DNA of 64,000 nucleotides from Acidimicrobiales bacterium (GCA_033344915.1 JAWPML010000001.1:3241736-3305735); one strand, 5' to 3'. Counted from the first letter of the stretch, positions 8,680-58,692 are shown. Numbers and translations: made by a program. Notes: a model not told the origin generated them from the sequence alone.

Positions 8680-10083
8680 TCAGCCGCGGATGACGTCGTC
8701 GGCGACCGCCGCCACCGCGACGGCCGACGCGACCGCCGGAGCGACCGAACGATCGAACACGCTCGGCACCACGAAGGCCGGGTCGAGCTCGTCCTCCGAC
8801 ACACAGTCGGCGATCGCGGTGGCGGCCGCGACCTTCATGTTCTCGGTGACGCTGTGGGCGTTGGCGTCGAGCGCGCCGCGGAAGATCCCGGGGAAGGCCA
8901 GGACGTTGTTGATCTGGTTCGGGAAGTCCGAACGACCCGTCGCCATCACGGCGGCCAGACCGTCGGCCTGCTCCGGACGGATCTCGGGATCCGGGTTCGC
9001 CATGGCGAACACGATGGGATCCTTCGCCATCTTGCGCAGGTCCGAGGCGTCGATGAGGTTCGGCGCGCTCACGCCCATGAACACGTCTGCGCCGACGAGC
9101 ATCTCCTGGAGAGTGCCGGCCTTGCGGTCCTTGTTGGTGTTCTCGGCGAACCAGGTCTTGGCCTCGTTGAGCCGGTCGCGCCCGGAGTAGACGGCCCCCG
9201 TGCTGTCGACGCCGACGACCTCGCCGACACCGGCGTCGAGCAGGATCTTGCCGCACGCCACGCCGGCCGCGCCCATGCCGGAGATCACGACGCTGATGTC
9301 GCCCATCTTCTTGTCGACCAGCTTCAGCGAGTTGTTCAGCGCGGCCAGCGCGACCACCGCGGTGCCGTGCTGGTCGTCGTGGAACACGGGGATGTCGAGG
9401 GCCGCCTTGAGCCGCGCCTCGATCTCGAAGCAGGCCGGCGCCGCGATGTCCTCGAGGTTGATGCCACCGAAGGTCGGGGCGATCCGGATCACCGTCTCGA
9501 TGATCTCCTCGGTGTCCTGGGTGTCGAGGCAGATGGGGAACCCATCCACGCCCGCGAACTCCTTGAACAGGAGCGCCTTGCCCTCCATGACCGGCATGGC
9601 CGCCTTCGCGCCGATGTTGCCGAGCCCGAGCACCGCACTGCCGTCGCTGACGATCGCGACCGTGTTCTTCTTGATCGTGTACTGGTGGGCGAGCGACTCG
9701 TCGTCGTGGATGCTCATGCAGACGCGAGCCACGCCGGGTGTGTAGGCCATCGCAAGATCGTCCGCGTCGCCGACCGAGCAGAGCGGCAGCACCTCGATCT
9801 TGCCGCCCTCGTGGAGCTTGTAGGTACGGTCGTACCACTCGAGCACGCTGACCCCGTCGAGCGCGTCGACCGCGGCAGCGACCTGCTCGGCGTGTTCCTC
9901 CGACCGGCAGTGCACGTCGATCGCCCGCACCACCGTGGGCCCCTTCGCCTCGAACCCGGGAATGGCGGCGATGTTGCCCCCGGCCTCGCCGATCGCGGCG
10001 GCGAAGCGCCCGAGCGTGCCCGGCACGTTGTCGAGCGAGATCTTGAGCGTGATCGAATAGGCGGCGGTCGGAGCGTTCTGCAC
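8680..10083 (-). CDS. NAD(P)-dependent malic enzyme with an N-terminal ACT domain
   Basis: GTG start. The ACT-like N-terminus is SITLKISLDNVPGTLGRFAAAIGEAGGNI. Malic-enzyme motifs follow: AYTPGVARVC, VSDGSAVLGLGNIG and VISGMGAAGVA. Confidence 0.9.
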   Translation of the reverse strand: MQNAPTAAYSITLKISLDNVPGTLGRFAAAIGEAGGNIAAIPGFEAKGPTVVRAIDVHCRSEEHAEQVAAAVDALDGVSVLEWYDRTYKLHEGGKIEVLPLCSVGDADDLAMAYTPGVARVCMSIHDDESLAHQYTIKKNTVAIVSDGSAVLGLGNIGAKAAMPVMEGKALLFKEFAGVDGFPICLDTQDTEEIIETVIRIAPTFGGINLEDIAAPACFEIEARLKAALDIPVFHDDQHGTAVVALAALNNSLKLVDKKMGDISVVISGMGAAGVACGKILLDAGVGEVVGVDSTGAVYSGRDRLNEAKTWFAENTNKDRKAGTLQEMLVGADVFMGVSAPNLIDASDLRKMAKDPIVFAMANPDPEIRPEQADGLAAVMATGRSDFPNQINNVLAFPGIFRGALDANAHSVTENMKVAAATAIADCVSEDELDPAFVVPSVFDRSVAPAVASAVAVAAVADDVIRG

Positions 10084-10106: not shown

Positions 10107-10148
10107 CCCTGTCTCGGGATCCCTGTCTCGGTATCTCTGTCTCGGGAT
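10107..10148. repeat. 3 x 14-nt tandem repeat abutting palindromic element copy 1
   Basis: The units are CCCTGTCTCGGGAT, CCCTGTCTCGGTAT and CTCTGTCTCGGGAT. The last unit runs into the left arm of the element (GGGATCTCTGG...). Confidence 0.7.
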
Positions 10149-10220
10149 CTCTGGTCACGAAAGTGTCGTACGAACCCGGTTCAGAGCCGGCGAAGCGACA
10201 CTTTCGTGACCAGAGATCCC
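10144..10220. repeat. 77-bp palindromic intergenic element, copy 1
   Basis: Left arm GGGATCTCTGGTCACGAAAGTGTCG (10144-10168) is the perfect reverse complement of 10196-10220. The loop is 27 nt. The element lies between the pyrE stop and the malic-enzyme start. Confidence 0.9.
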
Positions 10221-10240: not shown

Positions 10241-10786
10241 TCAGTCGTCGTAGGTGAAGCCGAGGTCCATGGCGGTCACGAGGGGGGAGAAGGGGATCCC
10301 GGCCTCGGCGGCCATGGCCGCGCAGGTGCCGCCCCGGTCGACGATGGCGAGGATCAGGATCGGGTCGGCACCCAGTTGGCGGACGACGTCGGCGGCTTCG
10401 AGCAGGGAGACACCGCGGCTGACGGTGTCCTCGGTGATGACGACCTTGTCCCCCTCCTGCAGGGCACCGGCGAGCCGGCCGGTGACGCCGTGGTCCTTCG
10501 CCTCCTTGCGGATCGAGAACGACCGCAGATCCCGGCCGCGCGTCGCCGCGACCGCGGCGATCCCGAACGCCACGGGGTCGGCGCCCATCGTGAGCCCGCC
10601 GATCGCCGTCGCCTCCGGCGGGATGACCATCAATGCGGCATCGGCCACCGCGAGGATTCCGTCCGGTCGACACGCGGTCTGCTTCGAGTCGATGAACCAG
10701 CGGCTCTTCCGGCCGGACTTCAGGGTGAAGTCACCCTCGCGGACCGAGTGTTGCCGGAGGTGGGCGACGAGTGCGTCAGATGCCAT
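10241..10786 (-). CDS. pyrE: Orotate phosphoribosyltransferase
   Basis: The track ORF is trimmed to the ATG at 10786, giving 181 aa. Motifs: GDFTLKSGRKSRWFID and the PRPP-binding site KVVITEDTVSRGVS. Confidence 0.85.
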   Translation of the reverse strand: MASDALVAHLRQHSVREGDFTLKSGRKSRWFIDSKQTACRPDGILAVADAALMVIPPEATAIGGLTMGADPVAFGIAAVAATRGRDLRSFSIRKEAKDHGVTGRLAGALQEGDKVVITEDTVSRGVSLLEAADVVRQLGADPILILAIVDRGGTCAAMAAEAGIPFSPLVTAMDLGFTYDD

Positions 10787-14837: not shown

Positions 14838-15680
14838 TCAACCGGTGAAGGTGGGATCCCCGTCGACCGGATCCTCCGGATCCATCGGCTGCGGCGGTGT
14901 GGGCGGCAGGATCGTGGTGGTCGTGGTGGGCGGTGCCGTCGTCGTGGTCGTCGGAGCGATCGTGGTGCTGCTCGGCGGCTCGATCGTCGTCGTGCTGACC
15001 GGCGGCTCCGTCGTGGTGCTGACCGGCGGCTCCGTGGTGGTGCTGACCGGCGGCTCCGTCGTCGTGGTCGTCGAGGTCGTGGTCGTCGACGTGGTGGTCG
15101 TCGTGGTCGTCGACGTGGTGGTGGTCGTCGTCGTCGGCGGCGGCACCAGCGAGAAGCCGACGCAGACCGGCTGCACCGAGTTGGCGCCACCCTCGGCGTT
15201 GACGGCGGCGTCGTTGGCGAACGCGTGCCGGGCCCGGATCGCGACGGCCGGGCGGTTGAGCACGACCGTGCCGACCGAGCCGGACCACTGGGCCTCGCTC
15301 ACCCCGTCGACGAGATCGGCGGTCATGCCGGTGCCGGCGATGACGATGCCGGCGTCGTCGATGAACTGCAGGACGTACTGCTCGTACATCTGCGGGACCG
15401 TGTTGACGCGATCGTCGTACCCGTCGTACGCGACGGTGTTGATGATGTACTCGCCGGCCGGGACGTCGGCCGCGACGGTCTTCGACCGGTTGTAGTACGA
15501 GTTGCCGGAAACGATCGTCGCCGCGACACCGGCGTTGAAGCCGACGTTCGGGAAGTTCACCGGGGTCAGGGTGTCGCCCCCGCACGTGGCCGGGCCGGAC
15601 TGGGCGTTGACCGCAGTCGGCACCAGGAAGGGGGCGAGGATCGCAACGGCGATGAGTGCTGTCCTCGTACGGGTGAACAT
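14838..15680 (-). CDS. Exported protein: unnamed about 150-aa N-terminal domain plus Thr/Pro-rich tail ending in TFTG
   Basis: ATG at 15680 with a GAGAGG RBS. The signal peptide is MFTRTRTALIAVAILAPFLVPTAVNA. The domain is bounded by Cys residues (ATCGGD...CVGFSLV) and is followed by poly-Thr and 3 x EPPVSTTT. The domain is paralogous to the N-terminus of the next gene. Confidence 0.7.
   Translation of the reverse strand: MFTRTRTALIAVAILAPFLVPTAVNAQSGPATCGGDTLTPVNFPNVGFNAGVAATIVSGNSYYNRSKTVAADVPAGEYIINTVAYDGYDDRVNTVPQMYEQYVLQFIDDAGIVIAGTGMTADLVDGVSEAQWSGSVGTVVLNRPAVAIRARHAFANDAAVNAEGGANSVQPVCVGFSLVPPPTTTTTTTSTTTTTTTSTTTTSTTTTTEPPVSTTTEPPVSTTTEPPVSTTTIEPPSSTTIAPTTTTTAPPTTTTTILPPTPPQPMDPEDPVDGDPTFTG
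14995..15066. repeat. 3 x 24-nt coding tandem repeat (EPPVSTTT)
   Basis: CTGACCGGCGGCTCCGT(C/G)GT(G/C)GTG occurs three times, lying inside the CDS above. Confidence 0.8.
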
Positions 15681-15884
15681 GGAAACCGACCTCTCAAGGT
15701 GAGACGCTTGGGTGGGGTCGGTTTCGCTCTGGCTCACCGTCGGACGAAGCGACCAATTGCAGTCCGACGGGTCGTTGCCTCCCCGTGAAGACCAGCGTAC
15801 GGGCCGCCGATCCGGGTGAACAATAGGCCGGGATACCCAAGTCTCATCAGGCGACCACGAAGCGTGATCGAACCGGCGTTTTGC

Positions 15885-17777
15885 CTACAACGACGCCAAT
15901 CTGAGCGGCCACGGCAAGGCGCCGGCAGCGCTGGCGATCACCGCGAGCACGACCAGCGATGCGGCAATGGGTCCTGCGACCCCGTCATCGACGGTGCAGG
16001 AGATGCTGCCGACGACGATCGGGGCGGCCGCCATCGAGCGGGAAACGGTGAGTTCGGCACGGGTGTCGCCGAGCGCGACCGGGACGCGACCGGTGCCGGT
16101 GCCCTCGAGCGCGAGCACACCCGCGACGGCGCCGTCGACGAGCACGACGAAGCGCTCACGGCCGACACCGGTACGGCGGATACTGACCGCGGCGGAGTCG
16201 GACGGACAGTCGGGCTCGACGATCACCTGGACGTCGGCGCATCCGGACGGATCGGGTTCGACCACCTGATCGGGCGAGCGTGCCTTGGGCTCGCTGACGA
16301 TCACACGCGTCGGGGCACCGGGGAGTACGGGGATCTCGGTGTCGCCGACGGCGCTTCCCTCCAGCACGACCGTGCCGTCCAGCTCGACGACGACCTCGAA
16401 CCGGTCGGTACCGGTGACCGCCACGGAGTCACAGTCGGTACGCACGACCCGGGGGCCGAGTGGGACGTCGCCCGGCTCGCCGGCCGGCGGGTCATCGCCC
16501 GGATCGGGCGGCTCCGGGGCGGGGCACACGTTCTCGATCTCGGTGCGCAGGACGTCGGCGCCCGCGGCGTCCACGACGCGTACCGGCACCGTCGCCGCTC
16601 CGGCCAAGGGGATCTCGACCTCGATCGCCTCACCGGCCGCGACCGTGACCTCGGCGACGAGGGCGACCCGCTCGTGGAGCACGGTGAGCGAGGCGGGGTC
16701 GCCGGCGTCGTTGCCGAGCCGCACGACGAGGACATCGGCCGTGCAGTCGAGGATCGTGGTGGCCGTCGGTCGGGCCGGATCGGCACAGTCGACCGACAGG
16801 TCGGCCCGGGCGAGGGTCTCGCCGGTGATGCTGTCGGAGACGCGGATCTCGCTGGTACCGGCGAGGTCGCCGATCGCCAGTGTGGAGGTGGTGATGGCGC
16901 CCGCTTCGACCGTGAGTCCGGAGGTGACGCCGGCGCGGGGCACCGCGACGTCGACGGTGGCGCCGGTGTCGCCCTGGTTGCCGAGCAGGACGATGACCTC
17001 GTCGGCCGCGCAGTCCACGACGGCCGACGCGGCGAGGATGACGCCGATCTTCTCGGGGATGGTCGTCGGTGGCGGTGCGGTCGTGGGCGGCGCCGTGGTG
17101 GGCGGCGCCGTGGTGGGCGGCGCCGTGGTGGGCGGCGCCGTGGTGGGCGGCACCGTGGTGGGCGGCACCGTCGTCGGCGGCACCGTGGTGGGCGGCACCG
17201 TCGTGGACGGCACCGTGCTGGGCGGCACCGTGCTGGGCGGCACCGTCGTGGGCGGCACCGTCGTGGACGGAACCGTCGTGGTGGTGGTCGTCGGCGGGTC
17301 GACGAGGCTGAAGGCGACGCACTGGGCGGTGACGGAGTTGGTGCCCTTCGGCGTGGACGGCGCGGCATGACGGACGGTGAAGTGGGAGACGCCGCTCTCG
17401 CTCACGAACGTGCCCAGCTGGTCGACGGCGGCCGCGGCGTCGACGCCGTCGGCGAGATCGCTGGTCGGGCCGAGCACCACGTGTCCGGTGATGTCGAGCA
17501 GCCACTGCTCCTGATCCTGCGACGTCTCGCTACGGCCCGGGTAGACGTCGAACGAGCTCGCCTGCACCGACCACTCCCCCGCGGGCAGCGGTTCGCTGAG
17601 CGTGAACCCGTAGGTGTCGTGTCCCGAACGGGACCAGACCGCGACGTCGAGCGCGACGACATAGTCGCCGGCGCACCCGCCCGTCGTGGCTGCCGCCGGC
17701 GACGAGGCGCCGACGAGCAGACCGATGACGAGCAAGGCGGCGCCGGACAGCAGTTTCCACAGCTGTCGCAACGTCAC
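15885..17777 (-). CDS. Membrane-anchored surface protein: same N-terminal domain, PPTT(V/A) linker, four Cys-marked beta-rich repeats, C-terminal TM helix
   Basis: The track ORF 15885..17849 is trimmed to the GTG at 17777 (GGGAGAG RBS). The signal peptide is [25 protein letters not shown] and the domain runs CAGD...CVAFSLV. About 14 pentapeptide repeats follow, then repeats starting VDCAAD / LDCTAD / TDCDS / PDCPSD, and a C-terminal helix [18 protein letters not shown]. Confidence 0.7.
17071..17280. repeat. 14 x 15-nt coding tandem repeat ([10 protein letters not shown] pentapeptides)
   Basis: The unit GGCGGC(G/A)CCGT(G/C)GTG is repeated head to tail from 17071 to 17280. Four consecutive units (17086-17145) are identical. 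Confidence 0.85.
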
Positions 17778-17868
17778 ATCGCTCTCCCGTACTCCTGGCC
17801 GCGAACGTAGTGGTCGCCGTGCCCACGGAGGGTGATACCCCGGCCGCATCGGGCGCCGACCTCACGGA

Positions 17869-20361
<2,493 letters not shown>

Positions 20362-20399
20362 GCGGGGGAACCTCCGGTCGATGATTGTAGCGCAGAAAA

Positions 20400-20423
20400 C
20401 CTGAGTGCAATACACTCAACTTT
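20400..20423 (-). promoter_or_regulatory. HAIR-like HspR operator upstream of clpB
   Basis: CTGAGT-GCAATAC-ACTCAA compared with the consensus CTTGAGT-N7-ACTCAAG. It lies 40-60 nt upstream of the clpB ATG. Confidence 0.6.
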
Positions 20424-20461
20424 GGCCGCGGTCGATCTATTCCCCCGCCCTCCCCTTCCCT

Positions 20462-20538
20462 GGGATCTCTGGTCACGAAAGGGTCGCATCGACCGCTGAT
20501 TTCGCCGGTGGGCCGACCCTTTCGTGACCAGAGATCCC
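20462..20538. repeat. 77-bp palindromic intergenic element, copy 2
   Basis: Arms GGGATCTCTGGTCACGAAAGGGTCG (20462-20486) and the perfect complement at 20514-20538, with a 27-nt loop. It sits in the divergent region between clpB and the HD-GYP gene. Confidence 0.9.
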
Positions 20539-20596
20539 TTCGGGTCGGTGGCGTCCTGAAGATTCGCGTTTCGCTGTCGACAGGGAACCGGAACGT

Positions 20597-23500
20597 ATGT
20601 CGTCCGAGACCACCACCCGCGCCTGGGCGAGACGCCCACTGATCGCCGGCTTCTTGAAAGTCGTCGTCTTCGTGGTGCCCATCATCTTGTCGATGGCGTT
20701 CATCACGGTCGCCACACGCGTCGTCGCCCGACCGGACACGTGGGTCGCGACGGCCGCCTGGTTCCTCGTCCTGACCGCCGGGGCCACACTCGTGATCGTC
20801 CGAGCCGCGAAGGTCATGCGGCGGGTCCTGCCAGTCGCGACGCTGTTCAACATCTCGCTCGTGTTCCCCGACCAGGCACCGTCACGGTTCTCCGTCGCGA
20901 TGCGGCGCAACACGGTGCGACAACTCCAACGGTCCGTCGATGACGGGACGCTCGACGAACAGACCCCACAGGAGGCCGCCGAGCACCTCCTGCGCCTCGC
21001 CGCCGCGCTCAACGATCACGACCGGCTGACCCGCGGCCACACCGAACGGGTGCGGGCCTACTCACTCATGATCGGCGAGGAGCTCGGGTTGCCCGAGGAC
21101 GAGCTGGCCAAGCTGCACTGGGCGGGGCTCATCCATGACGTCGGCAAGCTCGAGGTGCCGGCCGAGATCCTGACGAAGGACGGCAAGCCGACGGATGAGG
21201 AATGGCGGATCCTCCGCTCGCACCCGGCGCGCGGTGGCGAGTTGGTCGACCCGCTCCGGCCCTGGCTCGGCCAGTGGGCCGACGCCGCGAGCCAACATCA
21301 CGAATGGTTCGACGGCACGGGCTATCCGAACGGTCTCGCCGGAAACGAGATCTCGCTGTCCGGTCGCATCGTCTCCGTTGCCGACGCATTCGACGTCATC
21401 ACCTCCGCCCGGTCGTACAAGCCTCCACACTCCCCGGAGTTCGGCCGCGAGGAACTCACCAAGGGTGCAGGGACCCAGTTCGATCCCGAGATCGTGCGCG
21501 CCTTTCTCAACATCGGCATCGGGAAACTGCGCTTCGTGATGGGTCCGCTTTCCTGGCTCGGCAACCTCGGCGCACTCGGCCAGAGCACGGCGGTGCCCGC
21601 CGTGACCAGCGCCGCCACCGCAGCGGCCACCGTCGTCGCCTCCACCGCACTCGGCCTCATCCCGGCGACCGCCGTTCTCGAACCGGAGCTCGCGGCCCCC
21701 CGGCCGATCGAGCGCGCCGTCGACGAGCCGACGACCACCACGACAACCACGACCACCATCGTCGAGACCACCACGACAACCACGACGACCGTGCCGTTCG
21801 AGGGCGTCGACCTGGTCCTCGAAGCGGTGGCCGGCGCGCCCGCCACCGTGGACGTCGCCGGTGCGTACCCCGGCGAAGAGGTGGTCGTGACGATCCTCGA
21901 GCCGCCGACCGAGGGCATCCTGGTGATCGACGAGAACGGCGTGGCGATCTTCCTGGCGCCGCCCGAGTTCGCCGGCACCGTCAACGCCGAGGTGCGCGTC
22001 TGTCGCGCCGACGGCGACTGTGTCGACGCCACCATCGAGATCATCGTGAGTCCCTGGGACGGCTCGCCCGTTCCGATGGACGACACCGCGGCCACCGTCG
22101 AGGACGTGTCCGTCACCGTCGATGTCACCGCGAACGACGCGTCGCTCGACGGGTCGCCGCTCACCGTGACGGCCATCGAACGGGTCGGCGGGTGGAGTGG
22201 CGACTCGGCGTCGATCGTCGCCAACCGGGTCGTCTACGTGCCCGCGCCGAACGCATCCGGCGCGGTGGAACTCGCGTACACCGTGGAGAACGACACCGAG
22301 CGCACGGCCGACGGCACGATCTCGATCGACGTCGCCGCGGTGAACGACGCGCCGACGTTCGCAGGCGCCGGCGACGTCATCGTGAATGAGGACAGCGGCC
22401 CCTACTCGGCAATCTGGGCCTCGGCCATCAGCGCAGGCCCGACGAACGAGTCGTCCCAGTCCGTCTCGTTCACGGTGTCGGTCGACGACCCCTCGCTCTT
22501 CTCCGGCGCGGTCGCCCTCGACGGCAACGGGCGACTGACCTTCACCCCTCGCGCGGAGACGGTGGGATCGAGTCTCGTGCGGGTGACGCTGCGCGACAAC
22601 GGTGGCACCGCCGACGGCGGCGACGACAGCTCCGCGGAAGTCCGGTTCCGCATCAAGATCGGCGACGTCAACGATCCGCCGGATCCCGGCGACGACCAGA
22701 TCGAAACGCCCGAGGACACGCAGATCACGTTCGACGTGCTCACCAACGACACCGACATCGACGGCGACCCGATCACGTTCGTGTCGTACTCCGGCGACGG
22801 CGGGAGTCTCGGGGTGCTCGCGTCCCTCGGTGGCGGTGACTTCACGTTCAAGCCGGCGCTGAACGCGACCGGCAGCACCACGTTCACCTACGAGGTGTCG
22901 GATGGTGCCGGCGGGTCCGGGTCGGCCACGGTGACGCTGACGGTGACGCCGGTGAACGATGCGCCGGTCGCGTCGGACGACGGCTACTCGGGGGACGAGG
23001 ACGATTCGATCGTCGTCGCCGCCCCGGGCCTGCTCGGCAACGACACCGACGTCGACAGCGCGACCCTGACGGTGCAGACCTCGCCGGTGAGTGGACCGTC
23101 GAACGGGACGCTCTCGCTCTCGAGCAACGGCTCGTTCACCTACACCCCTGATCCCGGGTGGGACGGCACGGACAGCTTCGTCTACCGGACGGTCGACGAC
23201 GGCGGCTTGACCGACACGGCCACGGTCACGCTGCAGATCGACCCGGTCATCACCTCCCTGCAGCTCTACTTCGGTGACGCCGGCTCGTCGGCGAGCGACT
23301 ACGACCTGGTCTCGTCTCCGCCCGCGGCCGCCAACCCCGAACCCGACGTGGACGGGGACGGCGACGACGGCCTGCGGATCGACAAGACCGACAAGGGCCT
23401 GCTCGAGGCCGACGGGGACAAGTACCAGACCTGGAGCTACACGGTTCCCTCCGGCGGCCTCGATCTGCAGGGAACCGCGACCGTGCAACTCTGGTCGGCG

Positions 23501-23779
23501 CTGAAGGACTTCGACGACGAGAAGGACGTCCACGCCTACGTCTGGCTGCTGGACTGCGCAGGCTCGAGCTGCACGACCATCGCCTCGGCCGACCGCTTCG
23601 AGGCCGAGTGGGTCCCCGAGGGCGGCACCTGGGTCTACGACGAACTCACCTTCGCGTCCATCGACTACACGATCGCGGCCGGCCGCGAGCTCCGGCTCCG
23701 CCTCCAGTTCGACCACGAGGACATGTGGGTCGCGATGTCGGGCGGACGCCCGAGCGGCCTCTTCCTCAATCTCGGCTGA
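20597..23779 (+). CDS. Membrane HD-GYP domain protein fused to a Thr-rich linker and cadherin-like/VCBS-type repeats
   Basis: 1060 aa. Two N-terminal TM helices are followed by HD-GYP motifs (HTERV, HDVGK, HHEWFDGTGYPNGL, DAFDVITSARSY). A hydrophobic segment around aa 310-360 and a poly-Thr stretch come next. Repeats with VNDAP / VNDPP / TNDTDIDGDPITF / LLGNDTDVDSATL follow, and a beta-rich domain closes the protein. Confidence 0.8.
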   Translation: MSSETTTRAWARRPLIAGFLKVVVFVVPIILSMAFITVATRVVARPDTWVATAAWFLVLTAGATLVIVRAAKVMRRVLPVATLFNISLVFPDQAPSRFSVAMRRNTVRQLQRSVDDGTLDEQTPQEAAEHLLRLAAALNDHDRLTRGHTERVRAYSLMIGEELGLPEDELAKLHWAGLIHDVGKLEVPAEILTKDGKPTDEEWRILRSHPARGGELVDPLRPWLGQWADAASQHHEWFDGTGYPNGLAGNEISLSGRIVSVADAFDVITSARSYKPPHSPEFGREELTKGAGTQFDPEIVRAFLNIGIGKLRFVMGPLSWLGNLGALGQSTAVPAVTSAATAAATVVASTALGLIPATAVLEPELAAPRPIERAVDEPTTTTTTTTTIVETTTTTTTTVPFEGVDLVLEAVAGAPATVDVAGAYPGEEVVVTILEPPTEGILVIDENGVAIFLAPPEFAGTVNAEVRVCRADGDCVDATIEIIVSPWDGSPVPMDDTAATVEDVSVTVDVTANDASLDGSPLTVTAIERVGGWSGDSASIVANRVVYVPAPNASGAVELAYTVENDTERTADGTISIDVAAVNDAPTFAGAGDVIVNEDSGPYSAIWASAISAGPTNESSQSVSFTVSVDDPSLFSGAVALDGNGRLTFTPRAETVGSSLVRVTLRDNGGTADGGDDSSAEVRFRIKIGDVNDPPDPGDDQIETPEDTQITFDVLTNDTDIDGDPITFVSYSGDGGSLGVLASLGGGDFTFKPALNATGSTTFTYEVSDGAGGSGSATVTLTVTPVNDAPVASDDGYSGDEDDSIVVAAPGLLGNDTDVDSATLTVQTSPVSGPSNGTLSLSSNGSFTYTPDPGWDGTDSFVYRTVDDGGLTDTATVTLQIDPVITSLQLYFGDAGSSASDYDLVSSPPAAANPEPDVDGDGDDGLRIDKTDKGLLEADGDKYQTWSYTVPSGGLDLQGTATVQLWSALKDFDDEKDVHAYVWLLDCAGSSCTTIASADRFEAEWVPEGGTWVYDELTFASIDYTIAAGRELRLRLQFDHEDMWVAMSGGRPSGLFLNLG

Positions 23780-23797
23780 CCTCTCCCGTCCCAAGAA

Positions 23798-23872
23798 GGA
23801 TCTCTGGTCACGAAAGGGTCGAAGGCGGGCGCTCGTTCCCCGATGTGGCGACCCCTTCGTGACCAGAGATCC
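23798..23872. repeat. 77-bp-class palindromic intergenic element, copy 3
   Basis: Left arm GGATCTCTGGTCACGAAAGGGTCG (23798-23821) pairs with 23849-23872 with a single A.C mismatch. The loop is 27 nt. It lies between the convergent HD-GYP and hspR stops. Confidence 0.9.
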
Positions 23873-23894
23873 CCCGCAGGGCAGGGCAGGGGGG

Positions 23895-24281
23895 TCAGCT
23901 GCGGCGCTGACGCTTGTAGAGGGTGACGCTGCGGTTCGGGACGGGGACCAGATCGCGGCGGTACTGCCGGTGGACCTGGTCGGCCGCGGTGTCGGCCTGC
24001 CGGCGGGCAGCCGAGAGCTGACCCTCGAGTTCGGCGACGCGCGCCTCGAGCGCGAGCACGCGCTTCACCCCGGCCAGGTTGAGTCCGTCGTTCGTGAGCT
24101 CCTGGATGCGCTGGAGCAGGGCGATGTCGGCGTCGCTGTAGCGGCGGCTGCCACCACCGGTGCGGGCCGGATCGACCAGTCCCTTGCGTTCGTAGATACG
24201 CAGCGTCTGGGGGTGCACGCCGGCGAGCTCCGCGGCGACGGAGATCACGTAGACGGCTCGATGGAAGCGTTCGTTGTCCAT
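23895..24281 (-). CDS. hspR: MerR-family heat-shock repressor HspR
   Basis: The track ORF is trimmed to the ATG at 24281, giving 128 aa. The MerR HTH is YVISVAAELAGVHPQTLRIYERKGLV. It is the last gene of the dnaK operon. Confidence 0.85.
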   Translation of the reverse strand: MDNERFHRAVYVISVAAELAGVHPQTLRIYERKGLVDPARTGGGSRRYSDADIALLQRIQELTNDGLNLAGVKRVLALEARVAELEGQLSAARRQADTAADQVHRQYRRDLVPVPNRSVTLYKRQRRS

Positions 24282-41047: not shown

Positions 41048-41126
41048 CTAGGAGGCTTCGGATCCCGGCGAAGTTTTTCCTGTTCAGGGGTTGCGAAGGC
41101 GAACGTGTGTTCGCTATGGTGATCGT

Positions 41127-42359
41127 ATGTTCACCGCGACGATCACGGCGATGCGACAGGACCGACTCGACGGTCTCCCGCGCGCCGAGCTCGTCGACCG
41201 GGTCGAGGAGCTGCGGCGATTCCGCGGCGCGGTCGCCGACTACGAAGCGCGGCTGGTACGGGCGATCGACTCGCTGGACGACAACGGTCTCGACGGGCGC
41301 GGTGTGCTGCGCTCCCACGGGCGCGTCTCCGGCAAGACCGCGCATCGGGCGGCGCGGACCGCGCACGGGTTGGCCGACATGCCGCGTGCGGCAGCCGCGC
41401 TACGCGACGGGCGCATCACGGTCGAGCACGCCCATTCGCTCACCAAGGCCGGCCGCGAGATCGACCCCGAACTGGCTGACGCCGAGCTCGTGGAGATCGC
41501 GGAGGCGTCGCCGGCGGACCTGTTCGCCAAGCGCACCACCGAATGGATCGCGAAGCGGACCCGCAAAGACCCGAAGCCTGATCACGACGCCCAACGACGC
41601 GCCCGCACCCTGAAGCGCTGGGACGACAAGGCGACCGGGCTGCGCATGTTCCTCCTCGGCGTCGATCAAACCACCGGGGCACTCCTCGACGCCGACATCA
41701 ACCGACTCGAACAAACACTCTGGAACGACGACGGCGGCCGCAACGCCGACCCCGCAACCGCCCGCACCCTCGACCAGCGCCTCGCCGACGCCGTCACCCA
41801 ACTCATCACCGGCGCGCGCCGCGAAGGCGACCGGCCACCGCATCCGAAGTCCAACGTCACTGTCCTCATCGACATCGCCGCCATGACTTCAGACGACGGC
41901 AGCCCGCTCGCCTCGTTGGTCCAGGACGGACAACCACTCCCCGCATCGGTCCTCGACCGGCTCCTGTGCGTCTCCACCATCACGCCGATCCTGTTCAACG
42001 GGCCCGCCAACCCCATCTGGGTCGGACGCGACCACCGCCACGCCACCCTCACCCAATGGCGCGCCCTCATCGCCCGCGACCGCGGCTGCATCGGCTGCGG
42101 CGCCACCCCCGACCGCTGCGAAGCCCACCACATCGAACACTGGGAACACCACGGCGACACCGACATCGACAACCTCGTCCTCGTCTGCACCCGCTGCCAC
42201 CACAACATCCACGACCGCGGCCACACCCTCCACCGGACAAACGGCCGCTGGACCATCCGACCACCCGGCGCCCCACCCGCCGACAAACAACCGCACTTCC
42301 CCACCCACGACTTCCCCACGACACCAGAACCCGCCCACATCACGCCCCACGCGGCATGA
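41127..42359 (+). CDS. DUF222 plus HNH endonuclease domain protein (REP13E12-like family)
   Basis: ATG at 41127. The N-terminus is DUF222-like (ELVDRVEELRRFRGAVADYEARLV..GRITVEHA). The HNH motif is CIGCG..CEAHHIEHWEHHGDTDIDNLVLVCTRCHHNIH. Confidence 0.85.
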   Translation: MFTATITAMRQDRLDGLPRAELVDRVEELRRFRGAVADYEARLVRAIDSLDDNGLDGRGVLRSHGRVSGKTAHRAARTAHGLADMPRAAAALRDGRITVEHAHSLTKAGREIDPELADAELVEIAEASPADLFAKRTTEWIAKRTRKDPKPDHDAQRRARTLKRWDDKATGLRMFLLGVDQTTGALLDADINRLEQTLWNDDGGRNADPATARTLDQRLADAVTQLITGARREGDRPPHPKSNVTVLIDIAAMTSDDGSPLASLVQDGQPLPASVLDRLLCVSTITPILFNGPANPIWVGRDHRHATLTQWRALIARDRGCIGCGATPDRCEAHHIEHWEHHGDTDIDNLVLVCTRCHHNIHDRGHTLHRTNGRWTIRPPGAPPADKQPHFPTHDFPTTPEPAHITPHAA

Positions 42360-57513: not shown

Positions 57514-58692
57514 ATGCGCCGCCTCCTCGTCATCGGTCTCGCCCTCAGCACCTTCGCGATCGCCTGCGGCGACGCGACGGAGGAGGGCGACGCGCCGACC
57601 ACGACCACGTCGACGACGAGCACGACTTCGCCATCGACCACGACCACATCGACCACGACGACGACCACGACGACGACCACGACGACCGAGGCTCCGCCCG
57701 AGCTCGTCGGCGCCGACCTCGCGGCCACGGGGCCGTATCCGGTGGGCGTCACCACCCGCACGCTCCCGACCGGCAACGAGGTGGAGATCTGGTACCCGGC
57801 CGGGCCGGATGCGGAGGGCCAGACCGACACCTACTCGGTGCGCACGTTCACCCCGGAGGCCATGCGGGTGCTCGTCCCCGAGGAGATCAACGATCGGGTG
57901 ACGGTGGCCGCGGGTCGCGACGCGTCGGTGGCCGAGGACGGACCGTTCCCGCTCGTGATGTTCAGCCACGGCTCGACGAGCTTCCGCTTCCAGTCGACCA
58001 ACCTCACCCATCACCTGGCGTCGTGGGGCATGGTCGTCGCGTCGACCGACCACCCGACCCGGGCCCTCACCACGATGCTGGCCCGGCCGGAGGACGCGCC
58101 GAGCTCGGTGGACGACGTCCTCGCCATGCGCGAGCTGGTGCTCGCCGACGAGATCCTCGGCGCCCATGTCGACGGTGAGCGCGTCGGCATGAGCGGCCAC
58201 AGTGCCGGCGGCGGCACGACGCTCGCCGTCACCGCCCTCGGCGACATCGACGGCTACGTGAGCTATGCGTCCGGCGGGTTCTCGGACGAGCCGATGCCGG
58301 ACGTGCCGTCGCTCTTCATGGCCGGCGAGATCGACATGATCGTCGCGCCCGACCGCACCCGGGACGCATTCGAGGCCGCCCCCGCACCGAGCTGGTACAT
58401 GGAGTTCGCCGAAAGCGGGCACCTCGCCTTCAGCGACCTCTGCGCGGTCGGCGACGGCAACGCGACGTTGATCGACCTCGCCCTCGCCGCCGGGCTGGAG
58501 GCCTTCCTCACCGACGGCCTGGTACGCCTCGCCACGGACGGTTGTGAGGAACCGAACCGCCCGGTCACCGAGGTCTGGCCGGCGATCCACCAGGCGACCA
58601 CCGGCTTCTTCCGGTGGGTCTTCGGCATCGACGAGGACCCGATCGGGCTCGACGAGTTCACCGTCGACGGTGTGACGGTCGACGCTTCCTGA
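57514..58692 (+). CDS. Lipoprotein alpha/beta hydrolase (PAF-acetylhydrolase / dienelactone-hydrolase-like)
   Basis: ATG at 57514. It has the lipobox LSTFAIAC|G and an about 30-residue poly-Thr/Ser linker. The catalytic domain carries the GMSGHSAGGG nucleophile elbow and SGHLAFSD. Confidence 0.75.
   Translation: MRRLLVIGLALSTFAIACGDATEEGDAPTTTTSTTSTTSPSTTTTSTTTTTTTTTTTTEAPPELVGADLAATGPYPVGVTTRTLPTGNEVEIWYPAGPDAEGQTDTYSVRTFTPEAMRVLVPEEINDRVTVAAGRDASVAEDGPFPLVMFSHGSTSFRFQSTNLTHHLASWGMVVASTDHPTRALTTMLARPEDAPSSVDDVLAMRELVLADEILGAHVDGERVGMSGHSAGGGTTLAVTALGDIDGYVSYASGGFSDEPMPDVPSLFMAGEIDMIVAPDRTRDAFEAAPAPSWYMEFAESGHLAFSDLCAVGDGNATLIDLALAAGLEAFLTDGLVRLATDGCEEPNRPVTEVWPAIHQATTGFFRWVFGIDEDPIGLDEFTVDGVTVDAS

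Follow-up and report, generated by a model that had tools for sequence, protein, structure and literature searches.

A family of 77-bp hairpins with conserved stems and drifting loops in an Acidimicrobiales bacterium

The DNA that we analyzed (here called the window, a 64,000-nucleotide stretch of the genome of an Acidimicrobiales bacterium) contains three copies of a 77-bp palindrome, each made of two 25-bp arms around a 27-nt loop. The copies, W1 to W3, are listed with their neighbors in Table 1. W1 lies 21 nt past the stop codon of a gene for a 252-aa protein and 61 nt before the start of the malic enzyme gene (10083), both genes being on the minus strand. W2 occupies the divergent gap between clpB and a gene for an HD-GYP protein, 59 nt before the start codon of the latter, and W3 is centered in the convergent gap on the other side of the same gene, 18 nt past the HD-GYP stop codon and 22 nt past that of hspR. 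W2 and W3 therefore bracket the HD-GYP gene, which stands between heat-shock units. A preliminary description of this DNA, made from the sequence alone, had assigned the same gene context, and its malic enzyme, its divergent clpB/HD-GYP pair and its convergent HD-GYP/hspR pair all stood, but the name pyrE for the 252-aa gene proved weak, the match being sub-threshold.

Table 1. Positions of the hairpins and neighboring features in the window, and stem pairs that change on both sides among the six known copies
Feature	Position	Strand	Details
Malic enzyme gene	8680-10083	-	
14-bp tandem array	10107-10153		3.4 units, consensus CCCTGTCTCGGGAT; runs into the first 10 bases of the W1 left arm
Copy W1	10144-10220		arms 10144-10168 and 10196-10220, 25 bp, perfect; loop 10169-10195, 27 nt
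252-aa ORF	stop at 10241	-	upstream neighbor of W1; sub-threshold phosphoribosyltransferase match only
clpB	17869-20361	-	
C-rich tract CCCCCGCCCTCCCCTTCCCT	20442-20461		abuts W2; on the minus strand, a G-run motif next to the clpB -35
Copy W2	20462-20538		arms 20462-20486 and 20514-20538, 25 bp, perfect; loop 20487-20513
HD-GYP protein gene	20597-23779	+	1060 aa, with cadherin/Ig repeats
Imperfect extension of the W3 hairpin	23775-23900		C-rich left flank and G-rich right flank
Copy W3	23797-23873		in register with W1 and W2; arms 23797-23821 and 23849-23873; loop 23822-23848
hspR	23895-24281	-	last gene of the dnaK operon
Covarying pair	stem position 2		G-C to C-G in M1 and M3
Covarying pair	stem position 20		G-C to U-G in M1
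Covarying pair	stem position 21		G-C to T-A in W1

The surroundings of W2 are themselves well defined. The clpB promoter (~20393-20445, minus strand) is conserved across all of the relatives considered here (L002, L029, L031, L035); it is of the ECF/SigH type, GGAAT-N(17-18)-GTTG, and lies over an HspR-type inverted repeat, TTGAGTG-N5-CACTCAA. W2 and its counterpart in a second genome (M2, see below) are found 12 to 25 nt upstream of this conserved GGAAT...GTTG promoter, which overlaps the HspR operator, and two of the relatives (L029 and L030) have an 18-nt insertion just downstream of the promoter motif. The HD-GYP protein consists of an N-terminal HD-GYP domain (HD_5) fused to three cadherin-like/Big_9 repeats, and homologues of this fusion, 1200 to 1600 aa in length, are widespread in Acidimicrobiia and Gaiellales. 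Among close relatives, the interval between hspR and clpB that holds the gene varies in gene content. There is no GC-skew switch in the window, and a replication origin or terminus was discarded as an explanation.

When the window was searched with the 20-nt arm start GGGATCTCTGGTCACGAAAG at up to one mismatch, six matches were returned, forming three inverted pairs, where none was expected from 100 shuffles. W1, W2 and W3 are the three longest and strongest local inverted repeats within the 64 kb, with no other comparable to them, and their folding z-scores against shuffled sequence range from -7 to -12, whether they are folded as RNA or as DNA. The arms of W1 are the T-A variant at stem position 21. 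The W3 stem has one internal A.C mismatch on the plus strand (G.U on the minus strand), and its outermost pair is an A opposite a C. The repeat family first described from the sequence, with its three copies, arms of about 25 bp and 27-nt loops, was thus genuine, copy 3 being placed in register here; of the single A.C mismatch ascribed to that copy, the internal one is there, but the outermost pair is mismatched as well. A chance palindrome or an assembly artifact is already refuted as a source of these repeats, and we give it practically no credence: besides the shuffling result, contigs 100% identical to the window occur in independent Logan assemblies of two sequencing runs (SRR23274246 and SRR23274247; L033, L034, L038, L039), and the same element stands at the syntenic site in a separate metagenome-assembled genome (MAG). 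The Logan contigs include both elements, which indicates that the same strain was present in those samples.

That MAG came from a scan of one genome per species across 185,579 species, a collection that does not contain the window's own genome, for two 12-nt arm cores lying 26 to 56 nt apart. Only three sites were returned, all of them in Acidimicrobiales bacterium DHS20C19 (L001-L003; copies M1 to M3). Six copies are known in consequence, three in 64 kb of a 4.48-Mb source genome and at least three in the MAG, where the count depends on exact cores and is a lower bound. One MAG locus (L002) is syntenic with window positions 17388-21397, with ClpB 98% identical in protein and 92% in DNA, and its copy M2 (L002 861-937) is the orthologue of W2, in the same place upstream of clpB. 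The other two are not syntenic with the window, so that at least five distinct loci are occupied. The further copies and the conservation in a relative on which the preliminary description had staked the family are both supplied by this MAG.

Broader searches added no members. A looser scan of JGI metagenomes with shortened arms gave 25 loci, all without the ATCT extension or the 41-nt gap and hence unrelated hairpins; a scan of viral contigs for the arm gave no match, and BLAST against plasmids and phages gave none save one chance 28-nt hit. A covariance model (R1) built from the six copies detected no additional members, diverged ones included, in 310 kb of the window and related sequence, and no solo arms occur there. 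Rfam 15 placed nothing on the copies at gathering thresholds, and at relaxed thresholds only eukaryotic microRNA-precursor models appeared, with 14 to 45 bits against thresholds of 52 to 200, as generic matches to a long hairpin. The earlier failure to match the element to any repeat family that could be named is borne out as far as described RNA families go.

The relatives with 90 to 92% ClpB identity (L029, L030, L031/L032, L035/L036) have the wider gene order in common (dnaK-grpE-dnaJ-hspR ... clpB ... purA ... purB ... malic enzyme), and in all of them the element is absent from all three orthologous sites. The clpB site is thus occupied in the MAG and empty in the relatives. On a clock of fourfold sites in clpB, the distance from the window to the relatives is ~2.2 times that from the window to the MAG (identity of 0.555 versus 0.726, with saturation at ~0.44 to 0.47). 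Together with the absence from the relatives, this places the origin or the spread of the family on the branch leading to the source genome and DHS20C19. The family looks low-copy and restricted to one narrow lineage, its low-copy nature being suggested by the MAG count, a lower bound.

The orthologous pair W2 and M2 allowed us to ask how the element evolves at a single site. Their arms are identical at 50 of 50 positions, whereas the neutral yardsticks at the clpB locus have changed considerably: identity is 72.6% at fourfold sites and 39 of 58 positions (67%) in the flanking intergenic DNA, which also has a 10-nt indel. The difference between arms and flank is significant (Fisher P = 1.5e-6), and the neutral expectation for 50 of 50 is 1.5e-7. 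With no change in the arms where neutral sites are 27 to 33% diverged, the stem is under strong purifying selection.

What is selected is the hairpin. Across the six copies, 96.7% of stem cells form standard pairs, three stem pairs change on both sides (Table 1), and the covariation score exceeds those of all 500 shuffles and all slid controls. The compensatory change first noticed in copy 1, at stem position 21, was confirmed, and the selection on a hairpin that had been read from it is strengthened by the additional compensated pairs in the MAG copies and by the unchanged arms at the orthologous locus. All of the arm variation sits in the outer 3 and the inner 7 pairs and is compensated or wobble. 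The central 15-bp core, ATCTCTGGTCACGAA, has 0 changes in 180 positions against 15 in 120 for the rest of the arms. Part of this contrast comes from the search pattern that recovered the MAG copies, which fixed 12 of the core bases in each arm; with only the window copies counted, the figures are 0 of 90 against 4 of 60. Selection for pairing accounts for the compensated changes, and the additional constraint on the core suggests that its sequence is itself recognized. The invariant core thus points to a candidate sequence-specific factor that would read the duplex stem. The 77-bp hairpins are a real, selected and previously undescribed small repeat family, of a broadly familiar type.

The loops behave quite differently from the stem. 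In the given orientation, the three window loops have 10 of 27 positions in common, which is chance level, and loops at different loci are not detectably related; the conserved patch SCCGRYG proposed earlier did not survive, residual homology among separate loci having a P value of 0.10. The loops are also no more structured than shuffles. Comparison of W2 with M2 gave only 9 of 27 identical positions in flank register but 15 of 27 (56%) once one loop was reverse-complemented, a match with P = 0.004 when both orientations are allowed for. At this locus, then, change in the spacer has been neutral, at a rate close to that of intergenic DNA, with one inversion between perfect arms. Small loop inversions between short inverted repeats are well known in plastid noncoding DNA. 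The likeness is close, in that a spacer between perfect inverted repeats has opposite orientations in two closely related genomes and the arms and flanks remain collinear; the plastid case, however, is a mutational process and not a family, and it accounts only for the loop inversion found upstream of clpB.

On the loop's own clock, with 56% identity between W2 and M2 and splits up to 2.2 times earlier, loops at other loci are expected to be near random, so their lack of relationship needs no special mechanism. We had considered loop hypermutation and dropped it when the flipped alignment (56%) was set against the divergence of the flank (67% identity). The length of the spacer, 27 nt in every copy but M1, where it is 22 nt, can be read in the same manner: the flank indel rate predicts about one indel over five loops, which would make a constant 27 nt compatible with common descent, and a special constraint on loop length was rejected for that reason. 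The variable loop of fixed length, the most striking trait of the family, fits neutral drift, one inversion and common descent with few indels.

These results bear directly on whether the loop could be a programmed variable module, such as a captured spacer, a guide for an RNA- or DNA-guided system or the object of targeted diversification, with the arms as its scaffold. Loops of fixed length and unrelated sequence would be in keeping with that, as would an orthologous loop (15 of 27) that is flipped and more diverged than fourfold sites (73%). We nevertheless hold it to be very improbable. The orthologous divergence (56%) is near that of the flanking intergenic DNA (67%) and calls for no hypermutation, and near-random loops at different loci are what the loop's own clock predicts. 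No loop target was found in the window and related loci at up to six mismatches, and the three loop 20-mers matched no viral contig, which leaves the idea of spacer capture unsupported. The repeats are inverted rather than direct, no nuclease, integrase or reverse transcriptase is encoded nearby, and the loops are identical, with no polymorphism, in two sequencing runs of the same strain. Conserved arms with a variable loop of fixed length do not by themselves signal a programmable element.

The positions of the copies are biased toward gene ends. At four of the five loci (W1, W3, M1 and M3) the element starts 18 to 33 nt past a stop codon, in three cases within a convergent gap, and a U-tract is present at none of the loci. 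No T-run follows W1, W2 or W3 on either strand, and a scan with a terminator consensus called no copy. A canonical Rho-independent terminator was accordingly rejected, the G+C-rich hairpin being present but the U-tract missing, and the early judgment that a plain intrinsic terminator does not explain the copies was correct.

In most copies the stem is loosely prolonged by its flanks, C-rich on the 5' side and G-rich on the 3' side, and in the predicted fold of W3 the two stop-codon regions (CTGACC and GGTCAG) would pair with each other. The C-rich tract beside W2 is 10 nt shorter in the MAG orthologue. The tandem array that enters the left arm of W1 has a comparable counterpart in M1, where 4.7 units of 12 bp lie over the end of the right arm (L001 1048-1103); such arrays could have arisen by replication slippage at a DNA hairpin, though they do not prove it. 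In the relative L029, the site orthologous to that of W1 is occupied by an unrelated hairpin with a 13-bp stem (GAGAATGGACAGG / CCTGTCCATTCTC; L029 17814-17848) at the stop codon of a 181-aa gene. The appearance of an unrelated hairpin by the same stop codon suggests that a hairpin is functionally wanted at this site.

How does the family relate to known systems? REPINs are REP doublets that form hairpins and are mobilized by RAYT tyrosine transposases. In REP dimers and REPINs, conserved inverted arms enclose same-length spacers of unrelated sequence (PMC3337134, PMC3733652), and the hairpins described here resemble them in having two conserved inverted repeats of ~25 bp, a spacer of characteristic length and nonconserved sequence, an intergenic location mostly downstream of genes, and vertical inheritance within a lineage. 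The differences are several. A REP unit is itself an imperfect palindrome, whereas a single 25-nt arm of the family folds no better than shuffled sequence (-1.4 and -0.6 kcal/mol; z = -0.6 and 0.0) and contains no palindrome of its own. REP units carry a GTAG or CGTC tetranucleotide at one end, outside the stem (PMC3733652), whereas the family arms, GGGATCTC...GGGTCG, are fully paired and have no such unpaired tag. The spacer is not self-structured and the stem is perfect rather than bulged; the copies appear to number a handful (3 in 64 kb and at least 3 in the MAG) rather than tens to hundreds; and, where a REP system has a cognate single-copy RAYT (Y1 transposase) gene with repeats on either side, no such transposase is encoded among the ~45 ORFs scanned in the 64-kb window. 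For Actinobacteria, PMC3733652 gives no GTAG/CGTC REP family, the word itself occurring 0 times.

The Tuberculosis Rho-independent terminator motif (TRIT) of Mycobacterium is a sequence-conserved palindrome (Gardner et al. 2011, PMC3152330). Like the family, it is a lineage-restricted hairpin of a high-G+C actinobacterial group that is palindromic, and hence bidirectional, is conserved in both sequence and structure and stands at gene ends, and PMC3152330 also infers a factor that reads the double-stranded motif. TRIT differs in having 147 copies, typically over the stop codon (~-8), whereas the family has few, 18 to 33 nt past the stop, and occupies a divergent promoter gap at one locus. TRIT did not appear in the Rfam results for the copies. 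By analogy, the REP dimer or REPIN is closest to the family in architecture and TRIT in function, TRIT being likened to it by description rather than by sequence comparison and termination activity being putative for both.

MITEs such as the Correia elements and the Tn3-derived TIMEs are likewise short and dispersed in intergenic DNA, with terminal inverted repeats of ~25 bp and presence or absence among relatives. Of the two signs of a MITE proposed for examination at the outset, presence and absence among relatives was indeed found but a target-site duplication was not: none of the six copies has a direct repeat adjoining its ends, and the bases just outside the core are complementary rather than direct, the empty sites of the relatives upstream of the clpB -35 being too diverged for base-level alignment. 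Unlike a MITE, the family does not share its interior among copies, its terminal bases are the least conserved, and its arms are under purifying selection at an orthologous site. No parent insertion sequence was seen in the collection scans, which required both arms within 56 bp and are blind to a full-length parent. Integron attC sites were rejected because the stems are perfect and without bulges, the copies lie 3 to 10 kb apart among housekeeping genes, and the scanned ORFs contain no integrase domain; integron core sites, judged by eye only, are absent, as in the preliminary description. A CRISPR array was rejected too, since the repeats are inverted single units and the loop 20-mers have no viral match. 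The family thus belongs to none of the REP, MITE, attC, CRISPR or intrinsic-terminator classes, and no clean match to a described REP, MITE or Rfam family emerged that would contradict the preliminary description.

The reading that we favor, tentatively and at a little under an even chance, is that a small palindromic repeat became dispersed within one lineage, where its copies now persist as bidirectional hairpins at gene boundaries. As judged from the distribution, the 77-bp unit would have reached several intergenic positions in the ancestor shared by the source genome and DHS20C19, after the split from the relatives with 90 to 92% ClpB identity; with no target-site duplication and no parent element seen, it is the distribution that speaks for a mobile origin. 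Each copy has since been retained in place by purifying selection on the stem, and the spacer has drifted neutrally and, at the clpB locus, flipped between the arms; the duplex core would probably be recognized by a candidate trans-acting factor. On the assumption that the hairpins are transcribed, their most likely job would be to form a boundary in putative transcripts 18 to 33 nt past stop codons, where they could block 3'-exonuclease trimming or read-through after factor-dependent termination; alternatively, they could be processing sites for a double-strand RNase. Factor-dependent termination or an RNase role is invoked because the missing U-tract excludes a canonical intrinsic terminator. 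The effect would be to insulate the clpB and dnaK-hspR transcription units from the HD-GYP gene between them. Three features count against such a boundary: W2 and M2 are found between divergent promoters rather than at a 3' end, the 27-nt loop is unusually large for a terminator or stabilizer hairpin, and there is no U-tract. One report on mycobacterial RNA polymerase (PMC3993855) describes a U-tract as required for intrinsic termination.

Two other readings dispense with a hairpin that serves the host, and both seem to us unlikely. The element could be a selfish, nonautonomous transposon, MITE- or REPIN-like and without host function, whose arms are the sites of a transposase encoded elsewhere and are conserved for that enzyme. 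Terminal inverted repeats around a short core, dispersal in intergenic DNA, presence and absence among relatives, and spacers that are all different, as they are in REPINs (PMC3337134), would suit such an element; the tandem arrays that reuse arm ends hint at activity at the DNA level, and W3 sits where genes found in the relative L035 are missing. Yet variation is greatest in the three outermost base pairs, where active transposon ends are usually most conserved; none of the six copies has a target-site duplication; the unrelated loops at different loci argue against recent copying; and two sequencing runs of the same strain show no polymorphism. Selection at the level of the element leaves unexplained why an old copy has arms identical at 50 of 50 positions in two genomes. 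The single arm, moreover, has neither an internal palindrome nor a GTAG/CGTC tag, there is no transposase or integrase among the ~45 window ORFs, and 310 kb holds no solo arms or diverged copies. If the family were a decaying mobile relic, it would have little import beyond annotation.

In the other reading, equally doubtful, a host protein recognizes the element as double-stranded DNA, through two inverted 15-bp boxes at fixed spacing, and the hairpin is incidental; the protein could be a regulator, one that acts on the nucleoid or on DNA topology, or a gyrase-type binder as at REP/BIME. This would explain well why the 15-bp core is invariant when the rest of the arm varies, why the boxes are 41 bp apart in five copies and why W2 and M2 stand immediately before the clpB -35, where regulators typically bind, and two copies bracketing a gene between two heat-shock units would fit it too. 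It is harder to square with the three compensated pairs outside the core, which are not expected for a duplex operator, with M1, whose boxes are kept at a 32-bp spacing out of helical phase with 41 bp, with the position of four of the five loci at gene 3' ends and not at promoters, and with 25-bp arms that are much longer than usual half-sites. A bolder reading, which we consider improbable and less credible than either of these, is that this Acidimicrobiales lineage has an undescribed factor that reads hairpins and recognizes the core, and that the fixed-length spacer is actively inverted or turned over, making the element host-maintained and distinct from the REP/RAYT system. Such a factor might be a domesticated transposase, or else a protein that binds double-stranded RNA and acts in termination or processing.

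Proteobacteria commonly carry short palindromic repeats, which have been charted only poorly in Acidimicrobiia. Perfect stems and a small number of copies make this an unusually clean family, and its orthologous pair allows selection to be measured directly. With the stem frozen and the loop free and flipped, it offers a tractable case for asking what maintains the sequence of such hairpins beyond their pairing, the same question that the mycobacterial TRIT motif has left, and it bears on how high-G+C actinobacteria mark transcript ends without U-tracts.

The searches also turned up features unrelated to the family. A second hairpin, CTGGTCACGAAC-(~28 nt, often GGTTCC...GG)-GTTCGTGACCAG, recurs in contigs of soil and desert metagenomes (L009, L013, L018, L019, L006/L015, L008, L022/L026, L025); it shares an 11-nt stem start with the window family and differs in the rest, and its recurrence suggests a structured RNA or a repeat in its own right. 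The sole gene in the window of a kind associated with selfish elements encodes DUF222 and an HNH endonuclease (41091-42359, plus strand) and has no arms nearby. At 15707-15791 (minus strand) lies a c-di-GMP-II (GAG variant) riboswitch aptamer, scoring 45.9 bits against a threshold of 40, directly upstream of a repetitive 299-aa ORF without a Pfam match (14838-15737, minus strand); the HD-GYP gene, of the c-di-GMP phosphodiesterase type, is 5 kb away. Long in-frame arrays with periods of 9 to 24 bp, rich in His, Asp and Gly on the coding strand, occur at 14890-15170 and 17019-17320, inside this ORF and a neighboring one that also lacks a Pfam match (15885-17849, minus strand), and a related array is found as the reverse complement at 57590-57700. 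Finally, three to four 108-bp repeats at 103-467, within the ORF at 7-765, encode thrombospondin type-3 (TSP_3) calcium-binding repeats.
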